64,000 nucleotides of DNA from a virus (taxonomy: Duplodnaviria; Caudoviricetes): the IMG/VR virus record IMGVR_UViG_3300027672_001796, one strand, 5' to 3'. The notes under the pieces are model-generated. The model was not told the origin of the DNA. It saw nothing but the letters and a program-made list of their open reading frames with translations, and ran no database searches. Of the stretch, positions 12,001 through 64,000 are shown in pieces. Numbering within the stretch: position 1 is the stretch's first letter; each line of letters starts with the position of its first letter. The translations under genes were made by a program, and so were the position numbers.

Positions 12001-12449
12001 GCACTAGTTCCGTTAACTGTAATCTTGTTTGGGCCGTCTGTGCTCCAGAAATATTCCTGGAAGTTAACTAGCTTGTCGTAATCAATTGGAGGTAAAAAAC
12101 TATAAAAATTTGTGTCAAACAATACATTTTCGTTTTTAGTATCTACGCCATAACTCGATAATTGGTTAACAAAGTCTTCGTAGAATAATACATTTGTTGC
12201 TTCGCCGGTAGATCCATCAATTGTGTTTACTACTGGCTCTAAACTGTATTTTTGTCTGCTTGGATTTGGTTCAACAATGTAGTGGTCTTGGCTGGAGTTA
12301 AATTGATCTGGCTCCTTACGTCCAATGTATGCGGAAATTGTTTCAATGTTACTTTTACTGAATAACTGTTCTACGGTACTTTCAAAAAAGTTCTTTAATA
12401 CCGTGGTCTGTAATGCACCGGGTAACTTACTTATTTGCTTATCAGCCAT
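3..12449 (-). CDS. Giant virion/baseplate-associated protein, at least 4149 aa, truncated by the left window edge
   Basis: ATG at 12449 (MADKQISKLPGALQTTVLKNFFESTVEQLF...), 9 nt after the gp6-like stop. The same frame is still open at the left edge (...YKIFPSDLDAGV). It is absent from the ORF track, which implies no stop inside the window. Contains a YHYH-like segment (WHYNA...HSPIIGWAFDGLPIYGPYG, about 8080-8280) and a Pro-rich linker (CPPPPPVPPKPPVPP, about 1930-1980). Confidence 0.85.
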   Translation of the reverse strand, partial: MADKQISKLPGALQTTVLKNFFESTVEQLFSKSNIETISAYIGRKEPDQFNSSQDHYIVEPNPSRQKYSLEPVVNTIDGSTGEATNVLFYEDFVNQLSSYGVDTKNENVLFDTNFYSFLPPIDYDKLVNFQEYFWSTDGPNKITVNGTSATTINVLKDIIGKKFYTSPNGIELKNGAVIEFAGTHVIPATYLGIRYIVEGVGDSIVLYAKDQNFSAIFSTPAFTPWDDEVITAESTLIASNIPSGAITAAALLLEDNGTARQYYDALGKKIDNEFFIGLDDITLTGETYWKGYVTGTGKFLSYMNTGTAGFDADPWDGGNTQIVPDYLIMQRAAEDNNTWSRINFWHHKDRFTESATALPDKAYRAKRPILEFDRNLELYNFGSKGTTFSADLSGTGYTKNEVQGRAVSALLDNQGLKLANKLLLPDEDATISKYIYVVEDTQTQTVNGAVSSSTTVVLDSMADVYVGALVKGTGISGVDTTVKTINTSTLTITLSQAETIADGVALTFNNRIKLTRMPHPTTNPVGAVDGDSNFVPWTPVTGDIVAVLFGVQHQGKEYYWSGTKWIVGQRKTKVNSAPLFAAYDSSKKSVGNEVTYPSSSFKGTKLFSYKDALTSSTNDSVLGFPLEYKNFNNFSEIVFDNNMSSDVISYTPFGGTTTSFVKGYSYYKKTDTDGVITYDTAWRGHKDSFKQKVEDDFEVSQLDIDNKRTLWNLTTVPSDATKIRVKVNGIRRADWTYNTTLKAIEFTTFNVVKNDTIRITTPTTTGIIQDKKRTGRYELPLGWYANTEKSDVLTISEPQYLEHVKDYIQEQTNIVGNALGDNNFASLDDDKTLANKIVQTDDDLQMAGFLVSNDKFNIVDAMKFNGDEYLKYKNRLKKEIKRYIDANDTTVMTDHAILEDVLQNVIAYNPGKLVFDYSYMLALGDRYDEELLLINNIVQKEYTLSNFLNLDKIENAIHVYDQDAKGNDVLLLIDKDYTMAGKLGVCTLSFTTEYTLTLGNTIKVRFFNKNRESAQCPPTTSAMGITPVQLPKIMSDTSFAEAINVIVGHDGSRTVADNDKQDEILLEFEKRVYNSVQQVYRDKLNYPDLNVHDIRPGTFRNTGISRTAYYNILRENFNKFIARNEADFVENEYYDVDKPFTWNYNSGTANAGYWRGIFEDSFDTARPHTHPWEMLGLVKKPSWWDTQYITTTNTNYGSGNKPMWSDIENGIIRQGTTKNVDNSAYKINNPYRRIGLKSMLPVDADAKLLAPANISSTASTTRTTVWTQAELGTATASATSFVGTTDGLHINERTDGTTTHINVTTSNLLNHVIGTFPISNSTAFVEDKTSKYTIKVIADATDANHYSDASTSTAAQFVTATTTAKTHTGIAVNGGLVFNGNTGVTIDTTSNWHYNAMYRNEVGRDTAGGNPDANNRYGYVQPSPKTVGLSAWSTSTHSPIIGWAFDGLPIYGPYGYTDRLNDTSDIKRLVSSYSLKTNARDTYALGVGGIPTGEFIEDYVFDTATGDLDEFNGRFMVTPEFPSGVWAYVATIDTAGAPAYPYTVGPKFRFTTTDLANNILGAGTFATAGTENYSLVNTQTTTYTSDVTKVANEWKFGDGAPVENAWKMSEQYPFAIAEALFLTKPGKFASVFAEPEKIIRSSANPLQLLDKTTFKRYQVKDAIVHGNTAADNKTLLTNTGYTQFIDSYLRFHGINTKTEFATPFKSVNGKLGHKFAGFVDKDTMTVFSDSYSITGNSSSLILPHEDIQVSVHVGPYTTTNQYTGVIVELTADGYYKLSGYSSTKRFFEVEPSNKEGQRTEVSVGGEPADFSNYGATLSYNAGDIVKSGYNYYQAKSAVAKATAVTNTEFYQRLSSLPMVNAAEATYYLEGTGVTERVEYGTVYKTIGEVFEFLTELGRKQKTQGYDFNDFNNEINDVSDWVYSGKQFLFWSLGKWATGNTLSLSPMARKIKFTSIEGRISEIAESFKGQFSILDETGKKILPTDCLIVREGSTIEVTPPTNSQIFGIIIHTNSIEHAMLINNKTVFGDTIYDTVFGHRQKRLKVKGKRTANWTGSLMSEGFLITEDGLKPNYDTLAQDMGRYNEIGHVPVERQVYEASRRQYGYTERKYLREFELVDDNQFDFYNGMIRDKGTKASIEKLLNSDKVLVPGSIAVYDEWALKSGDFGDVQNNQRLDIKIQDSEITSENQLIQIVYPEDIVSVISEVELLGATTKFYSVPVLEIEGPPAEIPGSFMYAGGTTAEATVNLNTDGTIKDVTVTEPGYGYTINPSVTVVAAQLLTANITTYFSKPYAVSNAFLDSSGSFSANVLTGISITDNFSANAASFIDLSSSSNVTLVAEAINTNANTNANVTASVLTLGTAASTNYKLQLSGNDFTVSSANDAQKDDLVNKLKLDNSADIILNTGSKRFQPRQRYSFETANATTNTNVIVNINGTTVVAVEEDNTVNWEFDSGSRSTIVPTERTTSGSLAFTFAPESGNVTSQATPEAGNIAIDNLQIINGNYPHIEVLINGTLISDALETDGTNGFAIDNNAGTHNSTITFYDVTKLPGGELNENTPITIIERATVDFAEAYQGDLPGSTLNIKVKAEDALAARLKQQRTLEITPDDLSDSTILIDVDDSTRFIHRPTDMKTKDLWPTTKNVDFTGITDSKYTPLPNAGYISSYNVAYQAMNLNDFTGLFDIDSRPANKIPQENDVVHFAVSEHSDFNAYKLVQPTGFDATSNVAYIKFNDNLGTTMLYTDISLDAYANSNYLTDEANITNYYDNVIALKREGIALDSYYANIELADGDKMFDNTIMEVNTPVGYFLNEDQVVKNSVTISGIGYKEPLRLLIEKIEPTVSGNVSAVNYYINTSETFALDANVGTSNTVNLTYTGTTSMNDFEEGSYITFTDSSTGALNGNTYKASNVTVSPSTMATTLVDTTDTGIYSTTINGALSSATTIIITAGDNTIQVGHVVSGSGIPANTKVTAITDAVTMVVDTAVTMSNGATIQFSKRTNNYSTANSIITTFTVTESTFSSNVSSSALSLAVNNGLVFTTDMNTSTVANLGVVKINNAGYYSGVYRVVGKSATTISVYGDFVEPTSVVVSVGTTSGSTTATIASPNAVVTSGMLVSGAGITGGTTVAEVTVTGVVLSQNATATGTASLTFQDNAFGNATMMTDQVEVTLEEAHTLDTDGTDTIVNKVINIVDMEPNYYNWAWKVESVPSSTVIRLEGFGFDHPYATGGIRYVSEKEYKVHGTDTLPTTGGADSEAYLISKHDGDIMVNGAKVATAFPMHTSQEYADEINRQMAIKSGALVQCDSMYMSLTGITGIMNQVNKLMRGGSASKGGTPYFQQGGAGMGGAGKPNSSIGHSLPVLPFVSGTPLVNNIIPNITTQNPIPSAVGRGVAYNTLQQQLVHTGLGYPQMPSNPPAPGVSIPVIANPIPTPPPNKGWPFTDPAGNPLPPQPIQTIVPPSTISKGQTGPGASVATTGTTVVDWTPLISLTQHDDPCPPPPPVPPKPPVPPVTSVFVNEMNTQGRGQTETFKYKFAEDTSQTYPVRILFDMYSAKDRLTVYQSTHAGSTGSKIAGTGVASTLSPIDKVDIHAWSGVKWQISAGMTPWQQNNVGPGQLLNQGYSEHGNGFVKENGKISFTYDASKGRYITITLDKDSKTSTAFKYYMEHPADDVNGAGYPSKGSVGVGNPPPNGNQNTNLVTLANQTQIHGFPLYPPIAGMAHNFIGGYSNSRLNVGQNMVHLGGSGGYGGMGSINLPIYKTYPINQAPSGVPQFGVNGNMTSGAIFGGTGLVSGVGLNQKQNNTASTSYLSLTALQKNSTSGTVAPVSGTVNVPICKPKARVKICGQTKMVGAGDSFFINGDSILLSGSTKLTAIKKEILSQTTSVNVLITVDSATKEKCLMIRNKLSDPMIIRNGCAGGIYKEVLDYSIKQDNQVCFNKETTVTPTTTGAGATRHTVSGTSSTLDVATHVTSYTTNTVTAEQNRQALVKSSICITAGTGYEVGAIMRLMGGTPVVSQGVSPIEEFTVNNPGSGYLTNGMATPITFKIGQRGEPGGGALVDYDAITYDSNGGIVSVGLKLGGSGYSIDNPPTITVRGQGRDAEVSARLKPGPVMERPAKFVITGVDGYGGITDIQVIDRGIYKIFPSDLDAGV

Positions 12450-30638: not shown

Positions 30639-30956
30639 ATGATAGAGATACTACAAGAAGTAACTGACTGGGGCAAGTACTCTGTTAACAATGGGATTTA
30701 CCATGTTAATGGTGCTGGGCAACTAGTTGCATACAAGCCATCCGAAACTGCTGAACTTAAAACGTTTAAGAATCCGTTAAAGCAGTTTAGCAAAAGCAGA
30801 CGTAAGTTTGTTAAGTTAGGTGAGGCAGACGAGCAATTAGCAGATGATGTTGTTGTTGTTCAAGGCAGTAACGGTAAGACTTACACGATACAGGACGGTA
30901 AATGTAGTTGTCCTGGCTACACATATAGGGGAAATTGTAAACATGTTAACAAATAA
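30639..30956 (+). CDS. SWIM zinc-finger protein
   Basis: C-terminal CSCPGYTYRGNCKH (CxC-x(n)-CxH). Confidence 0.8.
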   Translation: MIEILQEVTDWGKYSVNNGIYHVNGAGQLVAYKPSETAELKTFKNPLKQFSKSRRKFVKLGEADEQLADDVVVVQGSNGKTYTIQDGKCSCPGYTYRGNCKHVNK

Positions 30957-30972
30957 AAAGGGGAATACGCAA

Positions 30973-33327
30973 ATGATTAATTTCTGTGCAATACTTTTAT
31001 CATTAGGCTTAGGTGCATGTGCAAGTGGCGGCGGCAGTACAACTGCACCCACCCCAACTGTAGTAACACCTCCAACAACGGTTACTACATCACCTGACAA
31101 GCGAATACAGTTTGAGACTTTTTCAGATAACTTTGAAAATACTAATAGTGCGTTAGGTTATAACAATGTGTCTTATGGTGTAGGCGATTATAATGATACA
31201 ACTTGGGTTAACGGCAAATACACTGTTGAAGACTTTGCATTTTTGCAAGTTACTATTAATGGTAGTCACGGCGGCAAAGACTTAAACAATCCAGACTCAG
31301 ACGAATATACAGGTCCAGGTGCTTGGATGACCAATGCAAGTTATGTTATAGAAAATGATATCAACCAAGATGGACATAACGACTTTGTTGTGTGGGTACA
31401 AACATTCGGTGACCGAAATACGATACCTGGCACACGAGCATTACAATTTATTAATGACGGCGAAGGACACTTTGCATTAGATTGTAGTGTGTTTGATAAC
31501 GGAGTATGTCCGTTAGTGTATGGACAAGATTCGACTATGACTAACATGGGTTGGTATAACGGAGAAGATGCGCCTGTACAAGAATACAACATGGGTATTG
31601 CACACCAATACGATTTAAACGGCGACGGTAATAAAGACTTGTTTAACACAGGTAACTTGTGGTTAACTGATAATGGCAAATTTATAAAGTCGCATGATAA
31701 CTTGCCAGACTTTATGCTTTCAAACAAAAATAAAGATGGGGTCGAAGTTGGATTGATGGTTCATGACCATGCTGTAGGTGATTTAAATGGAGACGGCTTT
31801 AATGACATCTTTATGCCTAACACAATACCCGTTGCTGATATGGGTACGAACGGTGGGAACGGATACAAGTTCTTTATGCTAAATGACGGATCAGGTAACT
31901 TTAAAGACACTAGGTTCAAAGTAGGTCATGATACTCACTTTGCGACATCTACAACAATAGCAGATTTTGATGGTGACGGTTTTGGAGATATTGCACTAGG
32001 CTGGAGTCAAGGCGCCTATGTTTCCTTAGGTGGAGATAGTGTAGGTGGCATTTATTGGGGCAACACTGAATCAGATTACACAACAGACTACACCGCATTA
32101 CCTCCTGGGTATTATGAATATAATATTGCATTCGATATGCAGGCAACGGATGTTAATGCAGACGGCTTACTAGACTTAGTTATAGCAAACACAGACGGCG
32201 AAAATTATTATCAAGGGCATGTGTTACAGTTCTTAACTAACAACGGCGACAGAACATTTGACCATGCGGCATTTAGGGCCGAAGAGTTAATAGAAGGAAT
32301 TAACAACGGCGTGAACCACATTTATATACTAGACTTCAATCATGATGGCATTGACGATATACTAGTTACTTCACAAGACCGAGCGTATGCTATGATTAAC
32401 AATGGCGATGGCACTTACACAGAAACTAGCCAGTTTGCTGTACCAGATAATAATCCTGTATTTAATATGTTATTCCCTGTTGAAGTAGATGGCAAATATG
32501 ATTACGACTTTATTGGTGCAAATATTATGCAACCATCAGACACACAAACAATTACTAGTTTCTTTATTAGTTTAGATCCACCGTCGCAGTTACAAGAAAT
32601 GAGATCAGAACTACTTAATAAGCCATTGCAGTACGCACAGACTATTGCTGATAATAAAACATTGTTCCATAATATTAAAAATGCAACACTTAGCGACAAT
32701 GTGTTTATGGCAAGAAATAGTGTTACAGGTATTCAAGGTTACTCGCACAATTTTGATAACATAGGTGTTACAGTAGGCAACACATCTAACGGTGCATTAG
32801 TATACTTGGACAAGCAAACAGGACAATTCCATTACGGTTTAGGTTATATGACAGACAAGATCGGTGCTAACAGTAACGGCAAATGGTATGGCAACGGTAC
32901 TGCTGAATTAGATGTTTCTACACTAAATGCATTTGCAGAATATACTACTCCTATACTACCTAACCTACATGTTACAACGGGCCTAGCAATGTATAAGACG
33001 TCAGTACAAGGCTTTACAGAAGAAAACAGTCAGTACAACATCACAGTAAAAGACTTTACTTTAAACGATGCAGAATTATATGTAGATGTAACAGGTATGC
33101 ACACATCAGTGTACGGAAATACATACTTAACATTAGGTACTAGTATGCACCAGAGCTTGAGTAATACAAGCATTGTGTGGGACGGTGGATTGGTATCTGA
33201 ATTTAGTAACAATGATGTTGCATTTAGGACTACACTAATGCACACATATAAAATGTTCTATGCTAAAGCAACTACTAGTTCAGTTGATGGCGACACATTA
33301 GAAATAGGATTTAACTTACAGTTTTAA
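30973..33327 (+). CDS. Lipoprotein with FG-GAP/VCBS repeats and a putative C-terminal outer-membrane beta-barrel
   Basis: Likely start MINFCAILLSLGLGAC (lipobox) after a GGGG SD; the ORF-track start at 30844 overlaps the SWIM gene. Six DxNxDGxxD-type repeats (DINQDGHND, DLNGDGNKD, DLNGDGFND, DFDGDGFGD, DVNADGLLD, DFNHDGIDD). Ends IGFNLQF. Confidence 0.7.
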   Translation: MINFCAILLSLGLGACASGGGSTTAPTPTVVTPPTTVTTSPDKRIQFETFSDNFENTNSALGYNNVSYGVGDYNDTTWVNGKYTVEDFAFLQVTINGSHGGKDLNNPDSDEYTGPGAWMTNASYVIENDINQDGHNDFVVWVQTFGDRNTIPGTRALQFINDGEGHFALDCSVFDNGVCPLVYGQDSTMTNMGWYNGEDAPVQEYNMGIAHQYDLNGDGNKDLFNTGNLWLTDNGKFIKSHDNLPDFMLSNKNKDGVEVGLMVHDHAVGDLNGDGFNDIFMPNTIPVADMGTNGGNGYKFFMLNDGSGNFKDTRFKVGHDTHFATSTTIADFDGDGFGDIALGWSQGAYVSLGGDSVGGIYWGNTESDYTTDYTALPPGYYEYNIAFDMQATDVNADGLLDLVIANTDGENYYQGHVLQFLTNNGDRTFDHAAFRAEELIEGINNGVNHIYILDFNHDGIDDILVTSQDRAYAMINNGDGTYTETSQFAVPDNNPVFNMLFPVEVDGKYDYDFIGANIMQPSDTQTITSFFISLDPPSQLQEMRSELLNKPLQYAQTIADNKTLFHNIKNATLSDNVFMARNSVTGIQGYSHNFDNIGVTVGNTSNGALVYLDKQTGQFHYGLGYMTDKIGANSNGKWYGNGTAELDVSTLNAFAEYTTPILPNLHVTTGLAMYKTSVQGFTEENSQYNITVKDFTLNDAELYVDVTGMHTSVYGNTYLTLGTSMHQSLSNTSIVWDGGLVSEFSNNDVAFRTTLMHTYKMFYAKATTSSVDGDTLEIGFNLQF

Positions 33328-54175: not shown

Positions 54176-54206
54176 AAAAAAGGGAGTTTTTTAACTCCCT
54201 TTTTTT
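54176..54206. terminator. Bidirectional Rho-independent terminator
   Basis: AAAAAAGGGAGTT-TTTT-AACTCCCTTTTTT between convergent genes. Confidence 0.9.
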
Positions 54207-54535: not shown

Positions 54536-54543
54536 GATAAATA
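54536..54543 (+). promoter_or_regulatory. Late promoter GATAAATA for the curli-like operon
   Basis: Same motif as before the structural genes, about 60 nt upstream of 54606. Confidence 0.65.
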
Positions 54544-54605: not shown

Positions 54606-54902
54606 ATGGAAGAAATATTTGGATTGATCGCTGAAGTAGGAGCCCCCATCGCCGGAAGTCTAGTAATGGGATTCTTTATCTTTATGGTAATAAAACAAAT
54701 TCTCGAGGGTGTTGTAGACCAGGTCAAAACTTTGACTATGTTTTGCACATCACTAGAAGCGAGAGCAAGTACTATGAGTAACGAAATGTTAAAAATAGAC
54801 TTGCTAGTTAGCAGTGCCTTAGACCTCAGACCTGACATAGATCGAGTTTCGAGAGCAGATAATTTTGTCGAAGATGGCAAAGTGGATGCTAGGAGAGACT
54901 AA
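54606..54902 (+). CDS. Small single-TM plus coiled-coil membrane protein
   Basis: VGAPIAGSLVMGFFIFMVI TM segment. First gene of the csg-like operon. Confidence 0.7.
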   Translation: MEEIFGLIAEVGAPIAGSLVMGFFIFMVIKQILEGVVDQVKTLTMFCTSLEARASTMSNEMLKIDLLVSSALDLRPDIDRVSRADNFVEDGKVDARRD

Positions 54903-55201
54903 TGGATATTGCACAGGCGATTAATGACTTTGGATTTCCAATCGTGTTATGCGTTGGACTCGGTTACTTTATATATTATATATGGTGGTTTATTGGAGAA
55001 AAGATAGATCCCGCTCTTGGCGACATGCATATAGCACTAATCAGAGTAATAGATAAAATGCGTAGATTAGACCAAGATTTAATTAGGCTACAACAGAAAG
55101 TTGATGTTGTGTTAGAATACAGAGCTAGACAACAAGTGCTAGACAATGCAGAACAAGAAACTGCATTAAAAACATTAAAACAAAAGCAAACAGGAAAGTA
55201 A
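54902..55201 (+). CDS. Small single-TM plus coiled-coil membrane protein (YvrJ/BhlA-like motif)
   Basis: FGFPIVLCVGLGYFIYYIWWFI followed by a coiled coil. TAATG overlap with the previous gene. Confidence 0.65.
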   Translation: MDIAQAINDFGFPIVLCVGLGYFIYYIWWFIGEKIDPALGDMHIALIRVIDKMRRLDQDLIRLQQKVDVVLEYRARQQVLDNAEQETALKTLKQKQTGK

Positions 55202-55202
55202 A

Positions 55203-55718
55203 ATGAAAATTACAGGTACACACTTAGGTATGTTGGTTATGGTCGGATATTTTATAATGTCTTTGGCTAATAGTGACCTTTATGCCGATGAACTAAAGTT
55301 TAAGTTCAAGTCTCCGTCATTTTCTGGTAACGGGACAGGAGCACATTATTTAACAATTGAGAACCAGGAGAAGTCACGAAAAGATAAGATTAAAGAAGAC
55401 ATAGAATCTGCGTTAAAACGAGCAGAACGTGACAATGATAATTCGACAATTAATAAATTTATTAGAAATTTGGAGAGTAGAATTTATTCACAAATTTCTA
55501 AAGGATTAGTCGACAGCATGTTTTGTGATCCAGCAGTAGTTATTGCATGTACAAATTCAGATTCAGGTAGTTTTGAAATTGAAGGAAATACTGTTACATA
55601 CATTAAAACAGTTAATGAAGATGGGCTATCTATTATTAGAATGACTATTGTTGACCCTGACGGAACAATAACAACTATTGAGATTCCAATTGGAATCGGC
55701 AACATTGGCGGCGGTTAA
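55203..55718 (+). CDS. csgF: Curli assembly component CsgF-like
   Basis: Signal peptide, then ELKFKFKSPSFSGNGTGAHYLTIENQE (compare CsgF TFQFRNPNFGG), SQISKGLVDSMF, GSFEIEGNTV, TTIEIP. Directly upstream of csgG. Confidence 0.8.
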   Translation: MKITGTHLGMLVMVGYFIMSLANSDLYADELKFKFKSPSFSGNGTGAHYLTIENQEKSRKDKIKEDIESALKRAERDNDNSTINKFIRNLESRIYSQISKGLVDSMFCDPAVVIACTNSDSGSFEIEGNTVTYIKTVNEDGLSIIRMTIVDPDGTITTIEIPIGIGNIGGG

Positions 55719-56728
55719 TGAAACTGTCTAATTACATACTGTTCTTTGTCGGCGCAATGTACTTAACTGGGTGTGCTAGTATATCTATACCCGGTGATAC
55801 AGCATGTAATACGGACTTTCTCGAATGCGTAGAAGAGCCGAAGCAAGTAGAATTACCCACATATCGAAAATTACGATATTTACCACCTAGCGAAACAATG
55901 CCAGTGGTAGCTGTTTATCAGTTTACTGACCAAACAGGACAAAGAAAAAGTCAAGATGGTGTCGCTAGTTTTAGTACAGCGGTCACACAGGATCCGAAGA
56001 GCATATTGATTGACGCCTTGAAGGCGGCAGGTGCTCACGAAAACCCAAAAGGAACATGGTTCCGGGTAGTTGAACGGGGTCTTGGCTTAGATAACTTAGT
56101 GAGGGAAAGGCAGATAGTTCGTAGTACACGCGAACAATATCAGACTGAAGAAAAACCTCAACAAGCAGTACAGCCATTGTTATTTGCTGGTATGATACTC
56201 GAAGGAGGTGTTGTAGGTTATGACACTAATGTAGAGACTGGCGGTAATGGTGCAAGGTACTTAGGTATTGGTACTACAAACCAATATAGAAGAGATAGTG
56301 TTACTATATCACTTAGAGCAGTAAGTACGCTCACCGGTGAAGTAATACTGAATGTACAGACATACAAAACTATCCTTAGTACAGGAATGGCAGGAGACGT
56401 ATTCAAATTTTTAGACATGGATACACGATTGCTTGAATTGGAAAGTGGCATGACACAGAACGAGAGCGTAACTTATGCAGTCCGGTCGGCGATTGAAGCC
56501 GCAGTATTGGCATTGATACAACAAGGTGATGAAAGAGGATATTGGAAAATTGTGTATCCGGAGAATTGGCAAGAAGAAGTAGATCAGCAAGAACGAGCTT
56601 ACTGGATGAAAGTCAATAATCAAGAAATTTTGGATACAAATGTAGACGAGAAGCCTACGTCATCACAGAATACTTTTTGGAAAAAAATATTACTAAAAAG
56701 TGAACCCATTAATGGAGAAGAAAAATGA
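55718..56728 (+). CDS. csgG: Curli secretion channel lipoprotein CsgG
   Basis: Lipobox LTGC, VAVYQFTDQTGQRK, STAVTQ, WFRVVER-GLDNLVRERQIVRSTR, EGGVVGYDTNVETGGNGARYLGIG, VTISLRAVSTLTGEV. Confidence 0.92.
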   Translation: MKLSNYILFFVGAMYLTGCASISIPGDTACNTDFLECVEEPKQVELPTYRKLRYLPPSETMPVVAVYQFTDQTGQRKSQDGVASFSTAVTQDPKSILIDALKAAGAHENPKGTWFRVVERGLGLDNLVRERQIVRSTREQYQTEEKPQQAVQPLLFAGMILEGGVVGYDTNVETGGNGARYLGIGTTNQYRRDSVTISLRAVSTLTGEVILNVQTYKTILSTGMAGDVFKFLDMDTRLLELESGMTQNESVTYAVRSAIEAAVLALIQQGDERGYWKIVYPENWQEEVDQQERAYWMKVNNQEILDTNVDEKPTSSQNTFWKKILLKSEPINGEEK

Positions 56729-57555
56729 AGACAAACGTAATAAAGAAATTTACACTACAAGTCTTCGCTATAGTAAGTGTAATAATAGGAAGTCAGGCTC
56801 TAGGTGCAACGGATAACGAAGTACTACTAGACCAAGAAGGTGACAACTTAATATTAACAATATTACAAGCTGGTAACAGTAACAGAGTTTCTGGAGTGGC
56901 CTCAGGGTCAGGAGATTTAGTTGTAACTGGTAACAGTTTGATAATTGATATCATACAAGACGGTAACACAAATAAGTTTTTTGGAGACTTAATATTTGAT
57001 GGATCCGGAAGTTCAGTAATGGACTTTTATCAATTAGGTGATAGTAACGTCTGGGATTTACAGATCGGTGCTAACTCTAATAGTGCAGATAATACAGACA
57101 TGCTAGTAGACATTCAGGGCGACGGCAACACATTTGATGTTGGCATAGCTCACAGTGCCGCGGCGGAAAGCACTAACTTTGATTTAGATATACTTGGTTC
57201 TAGGAACAATTTTACTGCAAGTTTCAACAATACTACAGCTTGGGCATCAGCATCAGGCAATAACGCTGTTGGCGGAATTAAAAGTACTGGAACTGGCACA
57301 TCTGCTTTAGCAGGTATTACAATTGATACTAGTAACGTTGTATGGAATATGGAAATTATAGGAGACGACAACAAATTTGCTACTAAACAAAGTGGTAACG
57401 GTGGTCATTCCTTAACAGTAGTCTTAGACGGCAGTGATGGTGATTTTCAATTCATACAGGACATGACAGCAACATGTAGTCCAACGTGTGAAGGTATAAT
57501 TAACATAAATCTAAATAGCGAAAATGCATCAGTTCTTATTAAACAGACTGATTAA
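56725..57555 (+). CDS. Curlin-repeat (CsgA/CsgB-like) secreted protein 1
   Basis: Signal peptide and repeated Q-x-G-x-x-N units (QEGDN, QAGNSN, QDGNTN, QLGDSN, QGDGN) with alternating hydrophobic strands. ATGA overlap with csgG. Confidence 0.7.
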   Translation: MKTNVIKKFTLQVFAIVSVIIGSQALGATDNEVLLDQEGDNLILTILQAGNSNRVSGVASGSGDLVVTGNSLIIDIIQDGNTNKFFGDLIFDGSGSSVMDFYQLGDSNVWDLQIGANSNSADNTDMLVDIQGDGNTFDVGIAHSAAAESTNFDLDILGSRNNFTASFNNTTAWASASGNNAVGGIKSTGTGTSALAGITIDTSNVVWNMEIIGDDNKFATKQSGNGGHSLTVVLDGSDGDFQFIQDMTATCSPTCEGIININLNSENASVLIKQTD

Positions 57556-58696
57556 CATAACAGCAGTATTAGTACTGTTGCTTACACCAAATCTGAGTGC
57601 CGCTGAGAGCATCGGCGGCATTATTGAACAAAGTGGAGCAACTGGAAGTATTGTAAGGTTGTCAGGCGAAGAACTGGCGGCTAATATTTTAGCCAATATT
57701 GTAAGTTATGATGAAGTAGAAACAACAAATGGGAGACTAAAAATTGAGTTTCTCGACAAAACCCAGGTTAGTCTAACAGAACACACTTACATGGAAATAG
57801 ACGAATATGTATTCGACCCAGATCCAAGTAAAAGCAAGATGGCATTAAATTTTGTACAAGGAACAGCTAGGTTTGCCACGGGCAGTTTAGGTCTCGTAGC
57901 AAAAGAAAATATAACAATCCTGACCCCTACCGCAAGTATAGGGATTAGAGGAACCGATTTTACTACCACAGTCGATGAACTGGGTAGGAGTCTAGTGATA
58001 TTATTACCGGACGAAGACTGTACTAATACAGTAGCATTAGAAGAAGGGTGTGCTCCAAGTGGTAGCATAACGGTAACAAATCAAGGCGGCACAGTAATAT
58101 TAGATGAAGCCTACCAGGCAGTAATGGTAAGCACATTTGAAACAAGCCCTACACAGCCTGTTGTGTTGGTTGATTTAGATTTAAATATGATAGATAATAT
58201 GTTTATTGTAGCAGAACCAAAACAGATTACAGAAGCAAAAGAAGAACAAGTACAAGAATTAAAAGGCGACAACGGATTATTAGACTTTGATGGCTTAGAT
58301 GCAAATGCAATTGAGCAAGATGTTTTAGCAGATACAACAGAAGATTTAGACTACACGGAATTGGATATAGATTTATTAAATGTAGACTTCCTAGTAGACT
58401 TATTAGACATTGTAGAAAAAACTACTAGTGGATTAGATGAAAAAGGCGGAGACTCAGGCAGTGGCGATAATAAATTAATAGGTGCTGTATACGGAACCAA
58501 TCCTGGAAATCAATTTAATATTATTCCAGACTTAGATGGCAAAGTATTTTTTCTCAGGCAAGTAAGCAATAAAATTAGTATTAAATTACGAAAAGGTTCT
58601 GTCGCACAGCTAGATATAAAAGACGGAGATTTAGGAGACACTATTATATGTTTAAGTAGTTGTGAAAACATATTAATAAGTATAACACAAGAATGA
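57524..58696 (+). CDS. Secreted/periplasmic FecR-domain protein
   Basis: Signal peptide, then DEVETTNGRLKIEFLDKTQVSL...FVQGTARFATG...TPTASIGIRGTDF. Acidic C-terminal half. Confidence 0.8.
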   Translation: MHQFLLNRLINITAVLVLLLTPNLSAAESIGGIIEQSGATGSIVRLSGEELAANILANIVSYDEVETTNGRLKIEFLDKTQVSLTEHTYMEIDEYVFDPDPSKSKMALNFVQGTARFATGSLGLVAKENITILTPTASIGIRGTDFTTTVDELGRSLVILLPDEDCTNTVALEEGCAPSGSITVTNQGGTVILDEAYQAVMVSTFETSPTQPVVLVDLDLNMIDNMFIVAEPKQITEAKEEQVQELKGDNGLLDFDGLDANAIEQDVLADTTEDLDYTELDIDLLNVDFLVDLLDIVEKTTSGLDEKGGDSGSGDNKLIGAVYGTNPGNQFNIIPDLDGKVFFLRQVSNKISIKLRKGSVAQLDIKDGDLGDTIICLSSCENILISITQE

Positions 58697-59634
58697 ATAT
58701 AGAAAAAAAATTAAATGACATGAAGCCAAAAGATACTCCTCTGTTAGTATTAGGATATATCTTATTGGGTATGATGCTATTATTACCAGCAACAGCAAAA
58801 GCAGACAATGAAGTGGTGCTAGATCAGGAAGGTGATAATGTGGTTGTAGATATAATGCAAGCCGGCGCTATTAATAAAATAGATATAGTACTAGGATTGA
58901 ATAATAATACTAACAATACACTTAAAATAGGCCAAGGACACTCCGAGGGCGCCGAAAGTAACAACGTGTTTTTTAGTGTTGATGGCACCCACAACACTAT
59001 GCAAATAGAACAGCATGGCAGTAATAACGAAGTTGGCTGGACTAATGCCTGGGGCACTGGTATTGGGTTTGGCGGCGACTTAGACGGAAATAGTAATCAG
59101 ATATACTTCCATCAAAATTGTACTCGTGGCGCAAGTTGTGGCAAATCAGATATAGGATTTCATATCAAAGGAAATTCTAATACAGTTCGATATGGTCAAG
59201 GAGTTTGGTTTGGTTCTGGCGGCAGTATATCGAGTACCACATTTTACGATGATGGCGACGAGGGCGGAAACCATACAGCAACGTTAGACATTCACGGTAA
59301 CAATAATACTCTTGTTGGAATGCAAAGAAACGGTAGTCTTGATACTTATGATGGTCATACTGCAAATTTATACTTGTATGCAGATGACAACACACTTTAT
59401 GTCAATCAACAAACAGATGGAGCAAAGACATTAAATTATTCCTCTTACGTTGATGGTACCGTTGGTAGTATAACTCAACACAGTAATGGTGCTCACACAG
59501 CCACAATAGTGTTGAACGGAACACAACCTAGTAATCTGACGCTATTACAAAGCTCGAATTCAGCAAAGTCATACTCACTTACTCAGACGTGCCACACAGT
59601 TGGCGGCTGTTCTATAAGTGTAACCCAAGACTAA
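58693..59634 (+). CDS. Curlin-repeat (CsgA/CsgB-like) secreted protein 2
   Basis: Signal peptide, mature N-terminus DNEVVLDQEGDN almost identical to that of protein 1, QAGAIN and QHGSNN units, N/G/S/Q-rich, C-terminal Cys pair. Confidence 0.7.
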   Translation: MNIEKKLNDMKPKDTPLLVLGYILLGMMLLLPATAKADNEVVLDQEGDNVVVDIMQAGAINKIDIVLGLNNNTNNTLKIGQGHSEGAESNNVFFSVDGTHNTMQIEQHGSNNEVGWTNAWGTGIGFGGDLDGNSNQIYFHQNCTRGASCGKSDIGFHIKGNSNTVRYGQGVWFGSGGSISSTTFYDDGDEGGNHTATLDIHGNNNTLVGMQRNGSLDTYDGHTANLYLYADDNTLYVNQQTDGAKTLNYSSYVDGTVGSITQHSNGAHTATIVLNGTQPSNLTLLQSSNSAKSYSLTQTCHTVGGCSISVTQD

Positions 59635-59640
59635 TAAAGG

Positions 59641-59669
59641 TTGACAAGTCGTTAAATAATTGCTATAAT
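59641..59669 (+). promoter_or_regulatory. Sigma70 consensus early promoter
   Basis: TTGACA-N17-TATAAT. Confidence 0.85.
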
Positions 59670-59676
59670 TAACGCT

Positions 59677-59877
59677 ATGAGACACATGATCAAGTGGTTG
59701 AAGATATCAGCTGGTATAAACATATACCTTAGCTTCATACTAACATTAGTATTAGTAGCACTTATGGTGGATATCGGTTTAGATAGTTATTGGCATGGCG
59801 CAGACTTCAAAAACAGTATTATAGAAGAACTGCACAAAGCACAGAATAATCAACTAGATGAAAACCACACAGGCTAA
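59677..59877 (+). CDS. Small membrane protein
   Basis: Hydrophobic segment IYLSFILTLVLVALMVDI. Follows the early promoter. Confidence 0.65.
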   Translation: MRHMIKWLKISAGINIYLSFILTLVLVALMVDIGLDSYWHGADFKNSIIEELHKAQNNQLDENHTG

Positions 59878-60196
59878 ACTCGCCACTGCGATTTCTAAAT
59901 ATAAGAAATCTACACAGTTATTACTCACGATTGTAGCAATTCCACATTTAGTTATAATCTCTTTGATGTTCCCTATGCTAACAGTAACCATTATGGCAAC
60001 ATTTATGCTGACTGGATTAATGTATGCTTGGTGTGAACTGATATACCAAATAGAAAATTCCCAAAGAAGTCAATTAATGTTCCTCATACAAACAACCACA
60101 AACGAACACACTAGACAAATACTGCGTATGGAACTTTGGGAAATTGAAAAACACAACGGACTTTCAGGCACGTTTGACCCATACCACATCATTTAA
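59858..60196 (+). CDS. Membrane protein (1-2 TM)
   Basis: Long hydrophobic stretch LLLTIVAIPHLVIISLMFPMLTVTIMATFMLTGLMYAW. Confidence 0.6.
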   Translation: MKTTQAKLATAISKYKKSTQLLLTIVAIPHLVIISLMFPMLTVTIMATFMLTGLMYAWCELIYQIENSQRSQLMFLIQTTTNEHTRQILRMELWEIEKHNGLSGTFDPYHII

Positions 60197-60199
60197 TTA

Positions 60200-60207
60200 G
60201 ATAAATA
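60200..60207 (+). promoter_or_regulatory. Late promoter GATAAATA
   Basis: Upstream of the 60259 lipoprotein (SD AAGGAG). Confidence 0.65.
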
Positions 60208-60258
60208 CTATATGTAATAATAGCAGATGGCTTTATTACCTTATATAAGGAGACGGAT

Positions 60259-60537
60259 ATGAATAATTTAGTATCTTTTTTCGGTTTAATTCTTTTATCA
60301 AGCATCGTAGGATGTGCCTCAGTTAGTGGCGCCTGGAATGCTGGTACAGAGATTGTCACAGGAACAGTTGACTCTGTTGTGGGCGGAGCCGCCACAATGG
60401 CAGTAGCGATTACTGATGATGTTCGAAACATTGCAGACGTAACTATTGACACAGCACAAGGTGTTGTTAAAACAGTTGCAGAAAATGTTGATAAACAAAC
60501 TGATGAATTACAAAAAGACAAAGAGCCGGGAAAGTAG
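60259..60537 (+). CDS. Lipoprotein (92 aa), amphipathic helical
   Basis: Lipobox IVGC and strong SD. The gene ends on G GGA AAG TAG. Confidence 0.8.
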   Translation: MNNLVSFFGLILLSSIVGCASVSGAWNAGTEIVTGTVDSVVGGAATMAVAITDDVRNIADVTIDTAQGVVKTVAENVDKQTDELQKDKEPGK

Positions 60538-60743: not shown

Positions 60744-60751
60744 GATAAATA
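60744..60751 (+). promoter_or_regulatory. Late promoter GATAAATA
   Basis: Directly after the terminator and upstream of the Asn/Thr-rich gene. Confidence 0.7.
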
Positions 60752-60840: not shown

Positions 60841-62292
60841 ATGAAGATAAGAATCTTATCAGCATTAGCCTTGATTGGGTTAATGACGACAACTGGTACA
60901 GTACAGGCCCAGGCCACCGGCACATGTACAGCAGGTACCCAGTATTGTGAAGCAAGTACATCGGATACTACAAGTACAACCACAACTACTGCGAATAATA
61001 CGAATACTTCGACGAACACGAATACTTCGACGAACACGAATACCAACGCGAATACGAACACGAATACCAACGCGAACACAAACACGAATACTTCGACGAA
61101 TACGAATAATTCGACGAATACGAATAATTCGACAAATACAAACACCAACGCGAATACGAACACGAACACCAACGCGAATACGAACACCAACACGAACACC
61201 AACGCGAATACGAACACGAACACGAATACCAATACCAACAATAATACCAACAATAATACCAACGCGAATACGAACACGAATAATTCGACCAATACTAACA
61301 ATTCGACCAACAGCAACACCAATAATAATACGTCGACAAATAATAACACCAACGCGAACACGAACACGAATAATAATACATCGACTAGTACCAACAACAA
61401 TGTGTCGAGTGGTGGAACAAATAACACCAATGCTAATACGAATAATAATACCAACACCAACAATAGCACTTCGAACAATACCAACACCAATAATAACACT
61501 AGTGATAGCACGGTAAACAGTACTTCGAATAACACTAATACGAACAATAGTAATATTGATCAGAACGTGAATTCAAATAGTACTAGTAACAATACCAACA
61601 CCAATAATAACAATAACAACTCGACCAGTGATAATACTAATAACAATAATAATACATCGACTAGTGACAGTAATGTAACAACTGACAACACGTCAGAAAG
61701 TAACAATACCAACACCAATAATAATACTAATAAAAACGAAAACATCAACAAGACTGACCAGACTATTAAGCAAGAGATAACAACTAAGGCTCCACCTGCT
61801 AGTGCTATTGCACCAAGCATTGGTTCTAGTTACTCACAAGACTTATGTACAACTGGTATATCAGGTGCTTTCCAAGGACAAGTATTTGGACTAAGTGGCG
61901 GTAAATCAGTTAGAGATATGAACTGTGAACGTATAAAGTTAAGTAAAACTATATACGATATGGGCATGAAGGTTGCGGCAGTTAGTTTAATGTGTCAAGA
62001 CGAACGTGTATTTACAGCGATGGAAATGGCTGGAACACCTTGTCCTTACATGGGAGCAATTGGCGATGCGGCTACTAAGCAATGGGCAGAGAATAGCGAT
62101 GAACGAGCAGATGCTAAACGTGGATGGTTCGGCAGAAAGAAAAACACAAGGTCATCGGCTAAAGTAGACTCGAATGTACTTAACACAGGCGAAGACTTTG
62201 ATAAGTTCATGAAAAAATGTCGTAAGAAAACAGGCAAAGGCAAGAAGAAAAGTTCGGGCCAATGTGAGGCAGAATGGGAATCAAACGCTTAA
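60841..62292 (+). CDS. Secreted protein with a long Asn/Thr low-complexity repeat and a Cys-containing C-terminal domain
   Basis: SD AAGGAG, signal peptide MKIRILSALALIGLMTTTGTVQA, about 250 aa of TNTNANTNTN/NSTNTN repeats, then APPASAIAPS...DLCTTG...NCERIKLSK...LMCQD...TPCP. Confidence 0.85.
   Translation: MKIRILSALALIGLMTTTGTVQAQATGTCTAGTQYCEASTSDTTSTTTTTANNTNTSTNTNTSTNTNTNANTNTNTNANTNTNTSTNTNNSTNTNNSTNTNTNANTNTNTNANTNTNTNTNANTNTNTNTNTNNNTNNNTNANTNTNNSTNTNNSTNSNTNNNTSTNNNTNANTNTNNNTSTSTNNNVSSGGTNNTNANTNNNTNTNNSTSNNTNTNNNTSDSTVNSTSNNTNTNNSNIDQNVNSNSTSNNTNTNNNNNNSTSDNTNNNNNTSTSDSNVTTDNTSESNNTNTNNNTNKNENINKTDQTIKQEITTKAPPASAIAPSIGSSYSQDLCTTGISGAFQGQVFGLSGGKSVRDMNCERIKLSKTIYDMGMKVAAVSLMCQDERVFTAMEMAGTPCPYMGAIGDAATKQWAENSDERADAKRGWFGRKKNTRSSAKVDSNVLNTGEDFDKFMKKCRKKTGKGKKKSSGQCEAEWESNA
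60985..61745 (+). repeat. Coding low-complexity repeat (AAC/AAT/ACG/ACC codons)
   Basis: Recurring ACCAACGCGAATACGAACACG and AATAATTCGAC units. Boundaries are approximate. Confidence 0.85.
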
Positions 62293-64000
62293 TAACAGCA
62301 CTTGCTGTAGGCGTACTAACTTTATTTCCTACAGTATCTGAAGCCGACGGAGGATACACGACTGATAATACTGGCTATCCTTTAGTAAATCTTGTTGGCG
62401 ACTATTATCAGGGTGGCAACAGCAACGGTTCAATACTATGTCAAGGCGCCGCAGATGAAACAGGTTGTAATATAGCATTTGCTATTGGCTTTGATTTTGA
62501 CTGGCATGGCGAAACATTCACTCACGGCTTAATGAGTACTAATGGTTGTTTAAAACTGTTGAAGTCAAGTGCGTTTAGCAGTAGTGATTACTGTAGTTAT
62601 GATGTAAAGCATCTAAGTGCCTCTTCAGGAATGAACGATACACTATTCCCTTTCTGGAGTGACTTAGACTTAGGCACAATATACGATACCCAAGCACCGG
62701 TTAATAGCACAATGCTCTTTAATAACTCGGGCAACTTTGCTACATTTGGCTGGTACTATATGCGTGAGTATGGCGTAACAGCAGATACGGATAAATTTGA
62801 TCCAATGTATCCAAACGCACATAATACGTTTGAGGTGGTGCTTTTAAATCAAAACTGTACAGATTGCCCAGGCAACACAGATGACGAAAACGATGACTAT
62901 GCTTACATATACGGTAACTTAGAAATTAGTCACAGTAATGTTTTAATTGGAGAAAAGAAAAACTCGAACTCCTTTACTGAAGCATACTTTTTTAGTGATA
63001 ATAGTTGGTGTGCAGATTGTATAAACCCAAATGACGGCACTCAAGGACGACACCTTTTTATATGGGACGACTATGACCAAGGAAACGTAGAAGGCGGAGC
63101 AATATACAAAGACGGTAATGGCGTACAGCCTGCAGAGTGTGAGAATAATCCTCTTTTTAGCACATCATGTAGTTTATATAGTATAAGTTTCTTAGCACAA
63201 CAATGCCTCTCCGATAGTTCATATAGTCCAGACTGTGACGGATACTTTGGTGACTTAGAAGACACATATTTAGAAGAAAATGCATGTTACGAAGATCCGA
63301 GCTTACCACAATGTGCCGGATTAGGTATTTTTGAAACTTTCAGTGATTATGATTATGCTACAGGAGAAGCGTATGACTTTAATTATAACCCACAAGAATT
63401 TGGCAACATGGACGGCTATGATCCTAACACAGGATTAGTTACGCAAAGTGATGGTTCGACAATTAGTATAGATGGCTCTTATTATTCCGATGGATATGAT
63501 CCTAATGTGGATTATGATAGCATGAATAATACGTCCGGCGATAACTTTTATTTGAATGAAGATGGCATATATGTTCCTGACCAATACGACCCAATGCAAG
63601 ATGACGATATAAAGTTTGAATATTTAAGTGAAGAACAACAGATGTTAGTTGGTCAAGGTTTAAGTATGCAGGAAGCCACACTAATTACAATGGGCCAAGG
63701 TGACCTACTAGCATTAGGACATGATCCTAACATACAATTTCAAGGTAACAACCCAGGCGACTTAGTTTATGAAATTATAGGACAAGACGATTACAACTAT
63801 GAAATGCATGACGAGTTTATGTTGAATGAAGCAGAAGAAAACGGCTGGGTAGATGGATATACAAGCAGTGATATATGGAGTACAGAAGAATACCAGCAAC
63901 AAGAAGATATGTGGGAAGCAGAGTTTGAAGCAGAGTTTGGACCAGACGCATACAGCTGGACATCAAAAGATTGGTATGAATACGATCTAAAAGAATTTGG
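62274..64000 (+). CDS. Secreted protein with a nidogen(NIDO)-like N-terminal domain and an acidic tail, truncated by the right edge (at least 575 aa)
   Basis: ATG at 62274 after GAGG SD, signal peptide MGIKRLITALAVGVLTLFPTVSEA, then IGFDFDWHGETF...MSTNGCL...LFPFWSDL. The frame is still open at the right edge (...DWYEYDLKEF). Confidence 0.7.
   Translation, partial: MGIKRLITALAVGVLTLFPTVSEADGGYTTDNTGYPLVNLVGDYYQGGNSNGSILCQGAADETGCNIAFAIGFDFDWHGETFTHGLMSTNGCLKLLKSSAFSSSDYCSYDVKHLSASSGMNDTLFPFWSDLDLGTIYDTQAPVNSTMLFNNSGNFATFGWYYMREYGVTADTDKFDPMYPNAHNTFEVVLLNQNCTDCPGNTDDENDDYAYIYGNLEISHSNVLIGEKKNSNSFTEAYFFSDNSWCADCINPNDGTQGRHLFIWDDYDQGNVEGGAIYKDGNGVQPAECENNPLFSTSCSLYSISFLAQQCLSDSSYSPDCDGYFGDLEDTYLEENACYEDPSLPQCAGLGIFETFSDYDYATGEAYDFNYNPQEFGNMDGYDPNTGLVTQSDGSTISIDGSYYSDGYDPNVDYDSMNNTSGDNFYLNEDGIYVPDQYDPMQDDDIKFEYLSEEQQMLVGQGLSMQEATLITMGQGDLLALGHDPNIQFQGNNPGDLVYEIIGQDDYNYEMHDEFMLNEAEENGWVDGYTSSDIWSTEEYQQQEDMWEAEFEAEFGPDAYSWTSKDWYEYDLKEF

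Follow-up and report, generated by a model that had tools for sequence, protein, structure and literature searches.

A curli-type secretion cassette with curlin-like proteins in an uncultured marine jumbo myovirus lineage

The IMG/VR viral record IMGVR_UViG_3300027672_001796 contains a cassette of seven genes related to curli (type VIII) secretion, located at positions 54606-59634 of the 64,000-nucleotide stretch analysed here (the window, which covers 64 kb of an 81.5-kb viral contig rated 23% complete). The cassette encodes homologues of CsgF and CsgG, a FecR-domain protein, two small membrane proteins and two curlin-like proteins, and our analysis upholds its identification in the original prediction as a phage-borne operon for curli-type secretion that also encodes curlin-repeat subunits. 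SAR11 and OM43 phages have been shown before to carry this cassette, and the window provides a further example from a new phage lineage. Probably, it represents a viral curli module like those of the SAR11 and OM43 phages, residing in a jumbo myovirus and secreting curlins from the infected cell. What is new here is the jumbo-phage carrier, the position of the cassette behind the tail-fibre genes, its expansion to ~13 kb and the structural support for both curlins, together with a late motif conserved across lineages and a FecR-cyclase locus of Henriciella that lies amid bacterial genes.

Gene content of the cassette and its carrier

The seven tightly coupled genes listed in the original prediction were all recovered as open reading frames (ORFs), and neighbouring ORFs overlap or are spaced by 1 to 32 nucleotides (nt). 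They are given below with the promoter-like motif ahead of them; lengths are in amino acids (aa), TM stands for transmembrane, and 8c50_A is the solved structure discussed with the curlins.

54536-54543, plus strand: GATAAATA, a motif resembling T4-type late promoters, 62 nt ahead of TM1
54606-54902, plus strand: TM1, small membrane protein, 98 aa (phrog_18771, E 3e-23; hydropathy)
54902-55201, plus strand: TM2, small membrane protein, 99 aa (phrog_18771, E 8e-21; hydropathy)
55203-55718, plus strand: CsgF homologue with signal peptide, 171 aa (PF10614, E 3.3e-11; phrog_35372)
55718-56728, plus strand: CsgG outer-membrane pore lipoprotein, 336 aa (PF03783, E 3.3e-48)
56725-57555, plus strand: curlin-like subunit 1 (curlin 1), 276 aa (signal peptide; repeats; AlphaFold2 model; match to 8c50_A)
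57524-58696, plus strand: periplasmic FecR-domain protein, 390 aa (PF04773, E 1.3e-9; phrog_37870, E 1e-61)
58693-59634, plus strand: curlin-like subunit 2 (curlin 2), 313 aa (AlphaFold2 model; match to 8c50_A; orthologues match Curlin_rpt)

In the profile searches that had been proposed as a check, CsgF, CsgG and FecR all exceed the curated Pfam cut-offs, and Curlin_rpt is weak on the window copies of the curlins. CsgF scores 43.9 bits against PF10614 (cut-off 25.8) over profile positions 3-132 of 132, and its stop codon overlaps the start codon of csgG by 1 nt. CsgG scores 164 bits against PF03783 (cut-off 20.8), and its residues 45-282 match the E. coli CsgG structures with an E value of 5e-45. 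When compared with the E. coli curli system (csgBAC, csgDEFG; 6L7A, 6SI7; 8ENQ), the CsgG domain aligns over its whole length and CsgF matches the whole Pfam model. In the constriction-loop region of CsgG the F-S-T-A-V stretch is kept, whereas the residues preceding it differ from those of E. coli. In addition, CsgG possesses a C-terminal extension of ~55 aa, and the cysteine of its lipobox (LTGC, residues 16-19) is invariant among 27 homologues. Sec signal peptides or the lipobox are visible in the sequences of both curlin-like proteins and CsgG. The statement that csgE is missing was borne out by a PF10627 search of the whole 81.5-kb contig, which gave no match at E ≤10; no search was aimed at CsgC or CsgD.

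The two small membrane proteins at the start of the cassette are paralogues. TM1 is composed of a transmembrane helix at the N-terminus and a helical tail after it, and its nearest Atlas clusters are viral only. The naming of TM1 and TM2 as histidine kinases in a previous study (PMC9599517) was considered and rejected, as neither protein matches a Pfam domain at E ≤1 and both are shorter than 100 aa. PHROGs contains families for TM1/TM2, CsgF, CsgG and FecR, so isolated phages already carry these families.

The window harbors a T4-like gene set, including a gp55-type late sigma factor and a gp46/47-like nuclease, and its structural genes encode the portal, prohead protease, major capsid protein, baseplate wedge and hub, and two long fibre proteins. 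For the major capsid protein, identity reaches 70% with the PA5oct group (285-kb Pseudomonas phages) and 62-63% with phages of 350-470 kb from Vibrio, Erwinia, Xanthomonas and Sinorhizobium. Moreover, the same curli cassette occurs on a related IMG/VR contig (339,794 bp, rated 91% complete) whose capsid protein shares 90% identity with that of the window. Judging from these capsid matches and the size of this relative, the carrier belongs to an uncultured marine jumbo myovirus lineage of ~340 kb, in which the cassette is placed directly 3' of two tail-fibre genes. A nucleotide-level search of isolated phages returned a sole match of 96 nt, to HTVC008M, and no tRNA genes were found in the window, so that tRNA offers no clue to the host.

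The two curlin-like subunits

Behind its signal peptide, curlin 1 is composed of strand-turn-strand repeats with Q-x-G-x-x-N motifs. Positional orthologues of the two proteins were taken from viral contigs (n = 56 for curlin 1 and n = 28 for curlin 2), and the alignment of the 56 curlin 1 sequences contains invariant Q, G and N columns with a period of 25-30 residues. The Pfam profile Curlin_rpt (cut-off 20.7 bits) gives 17.7 bits (E 0.0034) for curlin 1 of the window and an E value of 0.58 for curlin 2, and in a six-frame search the window curlin 1 scores 21.7 bits. Among the orthologues, 14 of the 56 curlin 1 proteins (best E 7e-8) and 18 of the 28 curlin 2 proteins (best E 9e-14) match this profile. 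When the family profiles were compared with solved structures, the only significant match for either family was 8C50 (E 5e-5 for curlin 1 and 1.7e-5 for curlin 2), the CsgA of Pontibacter korlensis, a long curli subunit with many repeats. The profiles of the phage curlins also detect genes downstream of csgG in alphaproteobacterial curli loci, among them those of Sphingomonas, Hyphomonas, Erythrobacter, Pseudovibrio and Roseovarius, and the curlin 1 family profile finds 1,770 representative clusters in a library of 1.8 billion proteins.

Modelling with AlphaFold, which had been suggested as a check of the fold, yielded beta-solenoids for both proteins. The predicted local distance difference test score (pLDDT) is 77 for curlin 1 and 76 for curlin 2, and the predicted template modelling score (pTM) is 0.75 for each. 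Both models are all-beta and contain about ten strand-turn-strand rungs; residues 170-191 of the curlin 1 model form irregular loops with pLDDT below 50. In an exhaustive structural alignment of the models against 48,161 solved chains, performed independently of Foldseek, the top match of both is the curli subunit 8c50_A, with a Z score of 17.6 for curlin 1 (runner-up 16.2) and 20.3 for curlin 2 (runner-up 15.3). The models share 18-19% identity with 8c50_A and superimpose with a root-mean-square deviation (rmsd) of ~9 Å over 211-222 residues, a large value which suggests that the twist or curvature of the solenoid differs from that of 8C50. Compared with 8C50, the phage curlins are shorter and their loops are irregular. 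They resemble the E. coli subunits in being strand-turn-strand proteins with Q/N/G repeats, but their repeats are ~25-27 residues long and number about ten instead of the five of E. coli CsgA, against which the phage curlin profile is insignificant (E 0.59).

The two curlins share a mature N-terminus, DNEVxLDQEGDN, with 40% identity across 42 residues. In E. coli CsgA, the N-terminal segment N22 directs the subunit to CsgG, and the shared N-terminus of the phage proteins had been proposed as such a CsgG-targeting sequence. This proposal is not supported, because the segment aligns with the repeat unit of 8C50, in which DN-x-V-Y-I-D-Q-x-G recurs, and is hence best read as the first curlin repeat rather than a separate targeting peptide, although this repeat might double as the signal. 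It is the best-conserved of the curlin repeats. As far as computation can tell from profiles and models, both Q/N/G-rich proteins are curlin-repeat beta-solenoids, which now gives structural support to the fibre subunits that were previously called missing (PMC9004378).

The C-termini of the FecR-domain protein and the two curlins are formed by a similar strand, in which a hydrophobic-x-hydrophobic-x-Q pattern is followed by D or E (regions 57480-57555 in curlin 1, 58600-58696 in the FecR-domain protein and 59570-59634 in curlin 2). In the jumbo lineage, a pair of cysteines 3-5 residues apart is located just before this strand in all three proteins. The terminal strand is kept in FecR orthologues across all phage lineages, and the cysteine pair is not.

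Late promoter, conservation and origin

The original prediction placed the cassette under a late promoter, and the occurrence of GATAAATA at 54536 agrees with this. The window contains 12 copies of the motif against 4.2 expected, a number reached in none of 100 shuffles. Each of them has the orientation of an ORF that starts at most ~100 nt downstream, as for the copies ahead of the portal gene and the two fibre genes; the copy at 23525 (minus strand) is located inside the first codons of an ORF starting with GTG. The gene for the gp55-like late sigma factor lies at 23634-24506. Among related loci, a NATAAATA motif is found within 160 nt upstream of the first cassette gene in 57 of 67. The jumbo lineage has GATAAATA or CATAAATA at -45 to -128, and the other, pelagimyophage-like loci mostly have TATAAATA at -14 to -18. 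A late-promoter motif upstream of the cassette is conserved across phage lineages, and together with the gp55 homologue it suggests that the cassette is transcribed late.

Assembled contigs from marine RNA libraries of three studies lie on TM2/CsgF, CsgG, FecR and the two curlins, as well as on the adjacent fibre gene, with 0-1 mismatches. They are consistent with transcription of the cassette and fit any timing. One such contig (54566-54766) starts 23 nt after GATAAATA and enters TM1, although contigs cannot show a transcript start.

For comparison of gene order, 80 viral loci with CsgG were fetched. The order of the cassette genes is kept among them, and the survey recovered TM1, TM2, CsgF, CsgG and FecR in this order in 61 of the 80 loci. 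All loci holding both CsgG and FecR have a gene of 224-292 aa between the two, with one exception. The junction between the fibre gene and the cassette is common to 27 independent viral contigs, and at least 95% of the sampled words of the region are present in 14 marine DNA runs from 10 studies.

The origin of the module was addressed with a quick maximum-likelihood tree of 141 CsgG sequences, the root of which is not established. All 59 bacterial sequences lie on one side of a branch with a Shimodaira-Hasegawa-like approximate likelihood ratio (SH-aLRT) support of 98, and the cassette-type sequences lie on the other. The window CsgG belongs to a clade of 26 rows (support 99), which corresponds to the fibre-adjacent jumbo lineage. 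This topology indicates that the phage copies share a common origin, apart from the sampled bacterial CsgG genes. Several contigs with the phage-type cassette (L088-L095, L097-L100, L103, L104) are filed in metagenome-assembled bacterial genomes labelled as Saprospirales, Sphingobacteriales, Flavobacteriales, Synechococcus, Rhodobacterales, Pelagibacter and Maricaulis. Given their phage gene order and labels spread across unrelated phyla, most of them are probably mis-binned phage DNA, and the taxonomic labels of these bins should not serve as host evidence.

Within a 396-kb contig of a Henriciella metagenome-assembled genome, CsgF, CsgG, a 504-aa curlin, FecR and a CHASE2 cyclase are encoded in a row (L096:6453-12476). 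This locus is without the two small membrane proteins, and its neighbours encode a TonB-dependent receptor, a racemase-like protein, a flavin adenine dinucleotide (FAD) oxidase, an FAA hydrolase and a 2-oxoglutarate (2OG) oxygenase. Its CsgG forms a very long branch in the tree. The locus may be of the type that donated the module to phages, or it may have passed from a phage to the cell. According to a previous study, bacterial type VIII secretion system (T8SS) operons do not include FecR or the cyclase (PMC9599517), a statement that the Henriciella locus qualifies.

The published record of the module is more extensive than stated in the original prediction. Beyond the pore genes, which the prediction noted as reported in SAR11 myophages, the whole cassette including the fibre genes and FecR has been published (PMC7029224, PMC9004378, PMC9599517). 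The GenBank annotations of HTVC008M (KC465899, 2013) and Melnitz (MZ577097, 2021) have the same gene order with curlin-repeat proteins, FecR and cyclase. The operon was described by Zaragoza-Solas et al. 2020, who put forward "sibling capture" (PMC7029224), whereas Buchholz et al. 2022 argued for the absence of fibre genes and suggested a pore for lysis (PMC9004378). In a 2022 mSystems paper, CsgA/B, FecR and cyclase were identified in myo- and podo-pelagiphages, with hits in metatranscriptomes, and superinfection exclusion, aggregation and import were suggested as roles (PMC9599517). Our literature search, incomplete in its coverage, found no report of this cassette in jumbo phages.

The window cassette shares with HTVC008M and Melnitz the two small membrane proteins, CsgF, CsgG, a curlin, FecR and a second curlin, with the cyclase further on. 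Its CsgG is 44-49% identical to theirs and lies on the same side of the tree, and a late-type motif is found upstream there too. Unlike those Kyanoviridae phages of 140-150 kb, the window carrier is a jumbo myovirus of ~340 kb; its cassette follows the tail-fibre genes, whereas theirs lies between the replication and structural modules, and the cyclase is reached only after ~6.3 kb of additional genes for envelope proteins. The upstream motif is GATAAATA at -45 to -128 where theirs is TATAAATA at -14 to -17. The core order CsgF, CsgG, curlin is also that of the alphaproteobacterial curli operons surveyed by Dueholm et al. 2012 (cited in PMC7029224), which have no CsgC, CsgD or CsgE. The absence of these three genes is likewise reported for alphaproteobacterial and published phage modules (PMC9599517). 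The bacterial loci differ from the phage module in being without the small membrane proteins and, Henriciella excepted, without FecR and cyclase. The occurrence of the module extends beyond small-genome phages of SAR11 and OM43, as it has settled and expanded in a widespread jumbo lineage; phage curli modules are common in ocean viromes and account for ~0.1% of assembled viral proteins (PMC9599517).

The FecR-cyclase pair and the role of the module

The module extends beyond 59634, where the original prediction had ended it, to a CHASE2 adenylate/guanylate cyclase present in nearly all relatives. The cyclase is located ~6.3 kb past the end of the cassette and outside the window, and it is found in 46 of the 56 loci having at least 3.5 kb of sequence after FecR; in 13 loci the FecR and cyclase genes overlap by 4 nt. 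The features downstream of the cassette are as follows.

59677-60537, plus strand: three small envelope proteins of 66 aa (one TM helix), 112 aa (two TM helices) and 92 aa (lipoprotein)
60841-64000, plus strand: lineage-specific insertion between cassette and cyclase, with a secreted 483-aa protein and the start of a secreted 1,074-aa protein
L007:13097-15661, minus strand of the contig, beyond the window: 150-aa membrane protein and 698-aa CHASE2 cyclase

The cyclase is composed of a CHASE2 domain (E 5e-33) and a class III nucleotide cyclase domain (E 3e-15), and the 150-aa membrane protein ahead of it has no similarity to TM2. In the jumbo lineage, the three small envelope proteins sit between the cassette and the cyclase. 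The genes for the 483-aa protein (60841-62292, plus strand) and the 1,074-aa protein (L007:15672-18896, minus strand; running off the window) are inserted in a subset of this lineage only, behind their own GATAAATA at 60744. About half of the 483-aa protein consists of Asn/Thr repeats, and its C-terminal domain matches phrog_20531; no family match was found for the 1,074-aa protein. The module of the jumbo lineage has grown to a ~13-kb block of envelope proteins.

In the FecR-domain protein, the FecR domain (residues 64-156) is followed by an acidic linker and a C-terminal strand ending in ISITQE, a motif conserved among 60 orthologues. The sole hydrophobic segment (residues 3-27) reads as a signal peptide. 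A FecR-type anti-sigma factor of iron-citrate signalling was considered and rejected: Pfam and hydropathy detect the periplasmic FecR domain and no cytoplasmic anti-sigma domain, and the block around the gene contains neither a cognate gene for an extracytoplasmic function (ECF) sigma factor nor one for a TonB receptor or transducer. The protein is therefore unlikely to be an iron regulator of the FecR type. From their gene linkage, the FecR-domain protein and the CHASE2 cyclase are read as an envelope sensor pair. A similar arrangement occurs in a biofilm-regulating operon of Burkholderia, where the gene for a periplasmic LysM/FecR protein (COG4254) lies beside that for a CHASE2 sensor kinase (PMC5192318). 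In both systems, a FecR gene with a signal peptide immediately precedes a membrane sensor with a periplasmic CHASE2 domain, although in the phage of the window the two are set apart by a curlin gene and several others. The phage output domain is a class III nucleotide cyclase instead of a histidine kinase, and the LysM domain is absent.

If the module secretes curlins from the infected cell, as we think probable, the gp55-type sigma factor would transcribe the operon late in infection, and CsgG would form a lipoprotein pore in the outer membrane of the host, with CsgF as its cap. The curlins would be exported by the Sec pathway, pass unfolded through CsgG and polymerise on the surface of the infected cell, which may in this way build an amyloid coat. 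The periplasmic FecR-domain protein and the CHASE2 cyclase would form an envelope-sensing cyclic-nucleotide branch, not an iron regulator. Infected cells would thereby acquire a surface structure which SAR11 and OM43, the reported hosts of the cultured and pelagiphage examples, are unable to build on their own, and this may affect aggregation, particle export and competition between phages. Two candidate pay-offs, the clumping of neighbouring host cells and the exclusion of competing phages, are already in print; indeed, the aggregation, superinfection exclusion and lysis pore put forward in the original prediction had all been published before (PMC7029224, PMC9004378, PMC9599517).

Fibre secretion late in infection is plausible, and several observations weigh against it. 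The support is computational. Both window curlins fall below the Curlin_rpt cut-off in the protein search, Foldseek against the Protein Data Bank (PDB) finds no significant match for either model, the rmsd to 8c50_A is large, and numerous beta-helix proteins reach Z scores of 12-16 against the models. Moreover, the mature curlins start straight with a curlin repeat and have no N22-like segment before it, and a CsgE-like gate was not found in the 81.5-kb contig. The RNA evidence consists of assembled contigs, which may stem from contaminating DNA, and the putative partnership of FecR and CHASE2 is read from gene linkage. In addition, the authors of the Melnitz study observed no clumping in culture (PMC9004378).

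The pore itself could be the functional element. CsgG, with or without CsgF, would then act as a gated outer-membrane or permeability pore timing lysis or release, as was proposed for Melnitz (PMC9004378), and the curlins would be accessory or vestigial. The lack of a CsgE gate in the contig, late expression, which would suit lysis timing, and the two small membrane proteins of holin-like size at the start of the operon agree with this idea. However, a curlin-like gene follows csgG in all loci but one across deeply diverged lineages, with its Q, G and N columns invariant, and streamlined phages would hardly be expected to conserve vestigial genes in this way. CsgF, a protein required for nucleation at the surface but not for the pore, is retained, and the premise of missing csgA/csgB in the Melnitz paper fails for this family in view of the 8C50 and Curlin_rpt matches. 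We regard a role restricted to the pore as rather unlikely. It is very unlikely that the module serves as an import channel, in which an ungated CsgG pore admits large nutrients or cofactors and FecR senses iron or siderophores (PMC7029224, PMC9599517). The unfound CsgE and the name and domain of FecR fit such a channel, but it leaves CsgF and the curlins unexplained, and the FecR protein, equipped with a signal peptide alone, lacks an anti-sigma domain and adjoins no ECF sigma or TonB gene, its conserved partner being the CHASE2 cyclase.

The location of the cassette directly after two tail-fibre genes in the jumbo lineage, with the same late motif, raises the question of whether the beta-solenoid proteins are virion or adhesin parts, such as tail-fibre decorations, instead of secreted amyloid subunits; many tailspikes are beta-helices and reach Z scores of 10-15 against the curlin models. 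This appears highly improbable, as both curlins have Sec-type signal peptides, unlike virion proteins assembled in the cytoplasm, the cassette is not beside fibre genes in HTVC008M and Melnitz, and the top structural and sequence match is a curli subunit. Finally, close homologues turn up in metagenome-assembled bacterial genomes under many taxonomic labels, as might be seen if the viral contig were an assembly chimera or contaminated with bacterial DNA. The chance of this is practically negligible: the cassette has phage genes to either side on its own contig, the junction recurs in the 27 contigs, the near-complete 340-kb relative has the cassette, a near-identical region is found in at least 10 marine studies (the 14 runs above), and the contigs from bacterial bins have the phage-type order with labels of unrelated phyla.

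An extension of the curli-secretion reading concerns the C-terminus of the FecR-domain protein, whose I-x-I-x-Q strand aligns end-to-end with the last repeat of both curlins. In profile-profile comparison, the FecR C-terminus matches these repeats with E values of 0.0035 and 0.0034 (CsgG control 0.35) at a probability of 9%, and Pfam Curlin_rpt matches none of 60 FecR tails; a curlin repeat in this C-terminus is a weak lead. The strand might dock on the curli fibre or on the CsgG/CsgF pore, and the FecR domain might report assembly or the state of the envelope to the CHASE2 cyclase. The FecR-domain protein would in that case be a fibre-associated adaptor feeding a secretion-coupled cyclic-nucleotide circuit in the infected cell, within a late-expressed envelope-remodelling island of ~13 kb, a proposal that we consider distinctly unlikely. 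When the mature FecR-domain protein was paired with the periplasmic CHASE2 domain in a complex prediction, the score was 0.01, which carries no weight either way.

Further features were observed around the cassette. On its upstream side, a terminator-like GC-rich hairpin flanked by A/T runs is located at 54176-54205, directly after the tail-fibre gene (stop at 54160), and sets this gene apart from the cassette. Downstream, a perfect sigma-70 consensus promoter (59641-59669, plus strand) lies between the curlin 2 stop and the gene for the 66-aa membrane protein; TTGACA and TATAAT are separated by 17 nt, with an upstream TG (12/12 matches). The small downstream genes may accordingly be read by the host RNA polymerase on a schedule unlike that of the late cassette. 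Elsewhere in the window, an ORF of at least 4,149 aa (3-12449, minus strand) runs off the window and adjoins the gene for a baseplate wedge protein of 1,457 aa, and an 827-aa FG-GAP-repeat protein with an integrin-alpha-like beta-propeller (30844-33327, plus strand) is encoded amid the structural genes.

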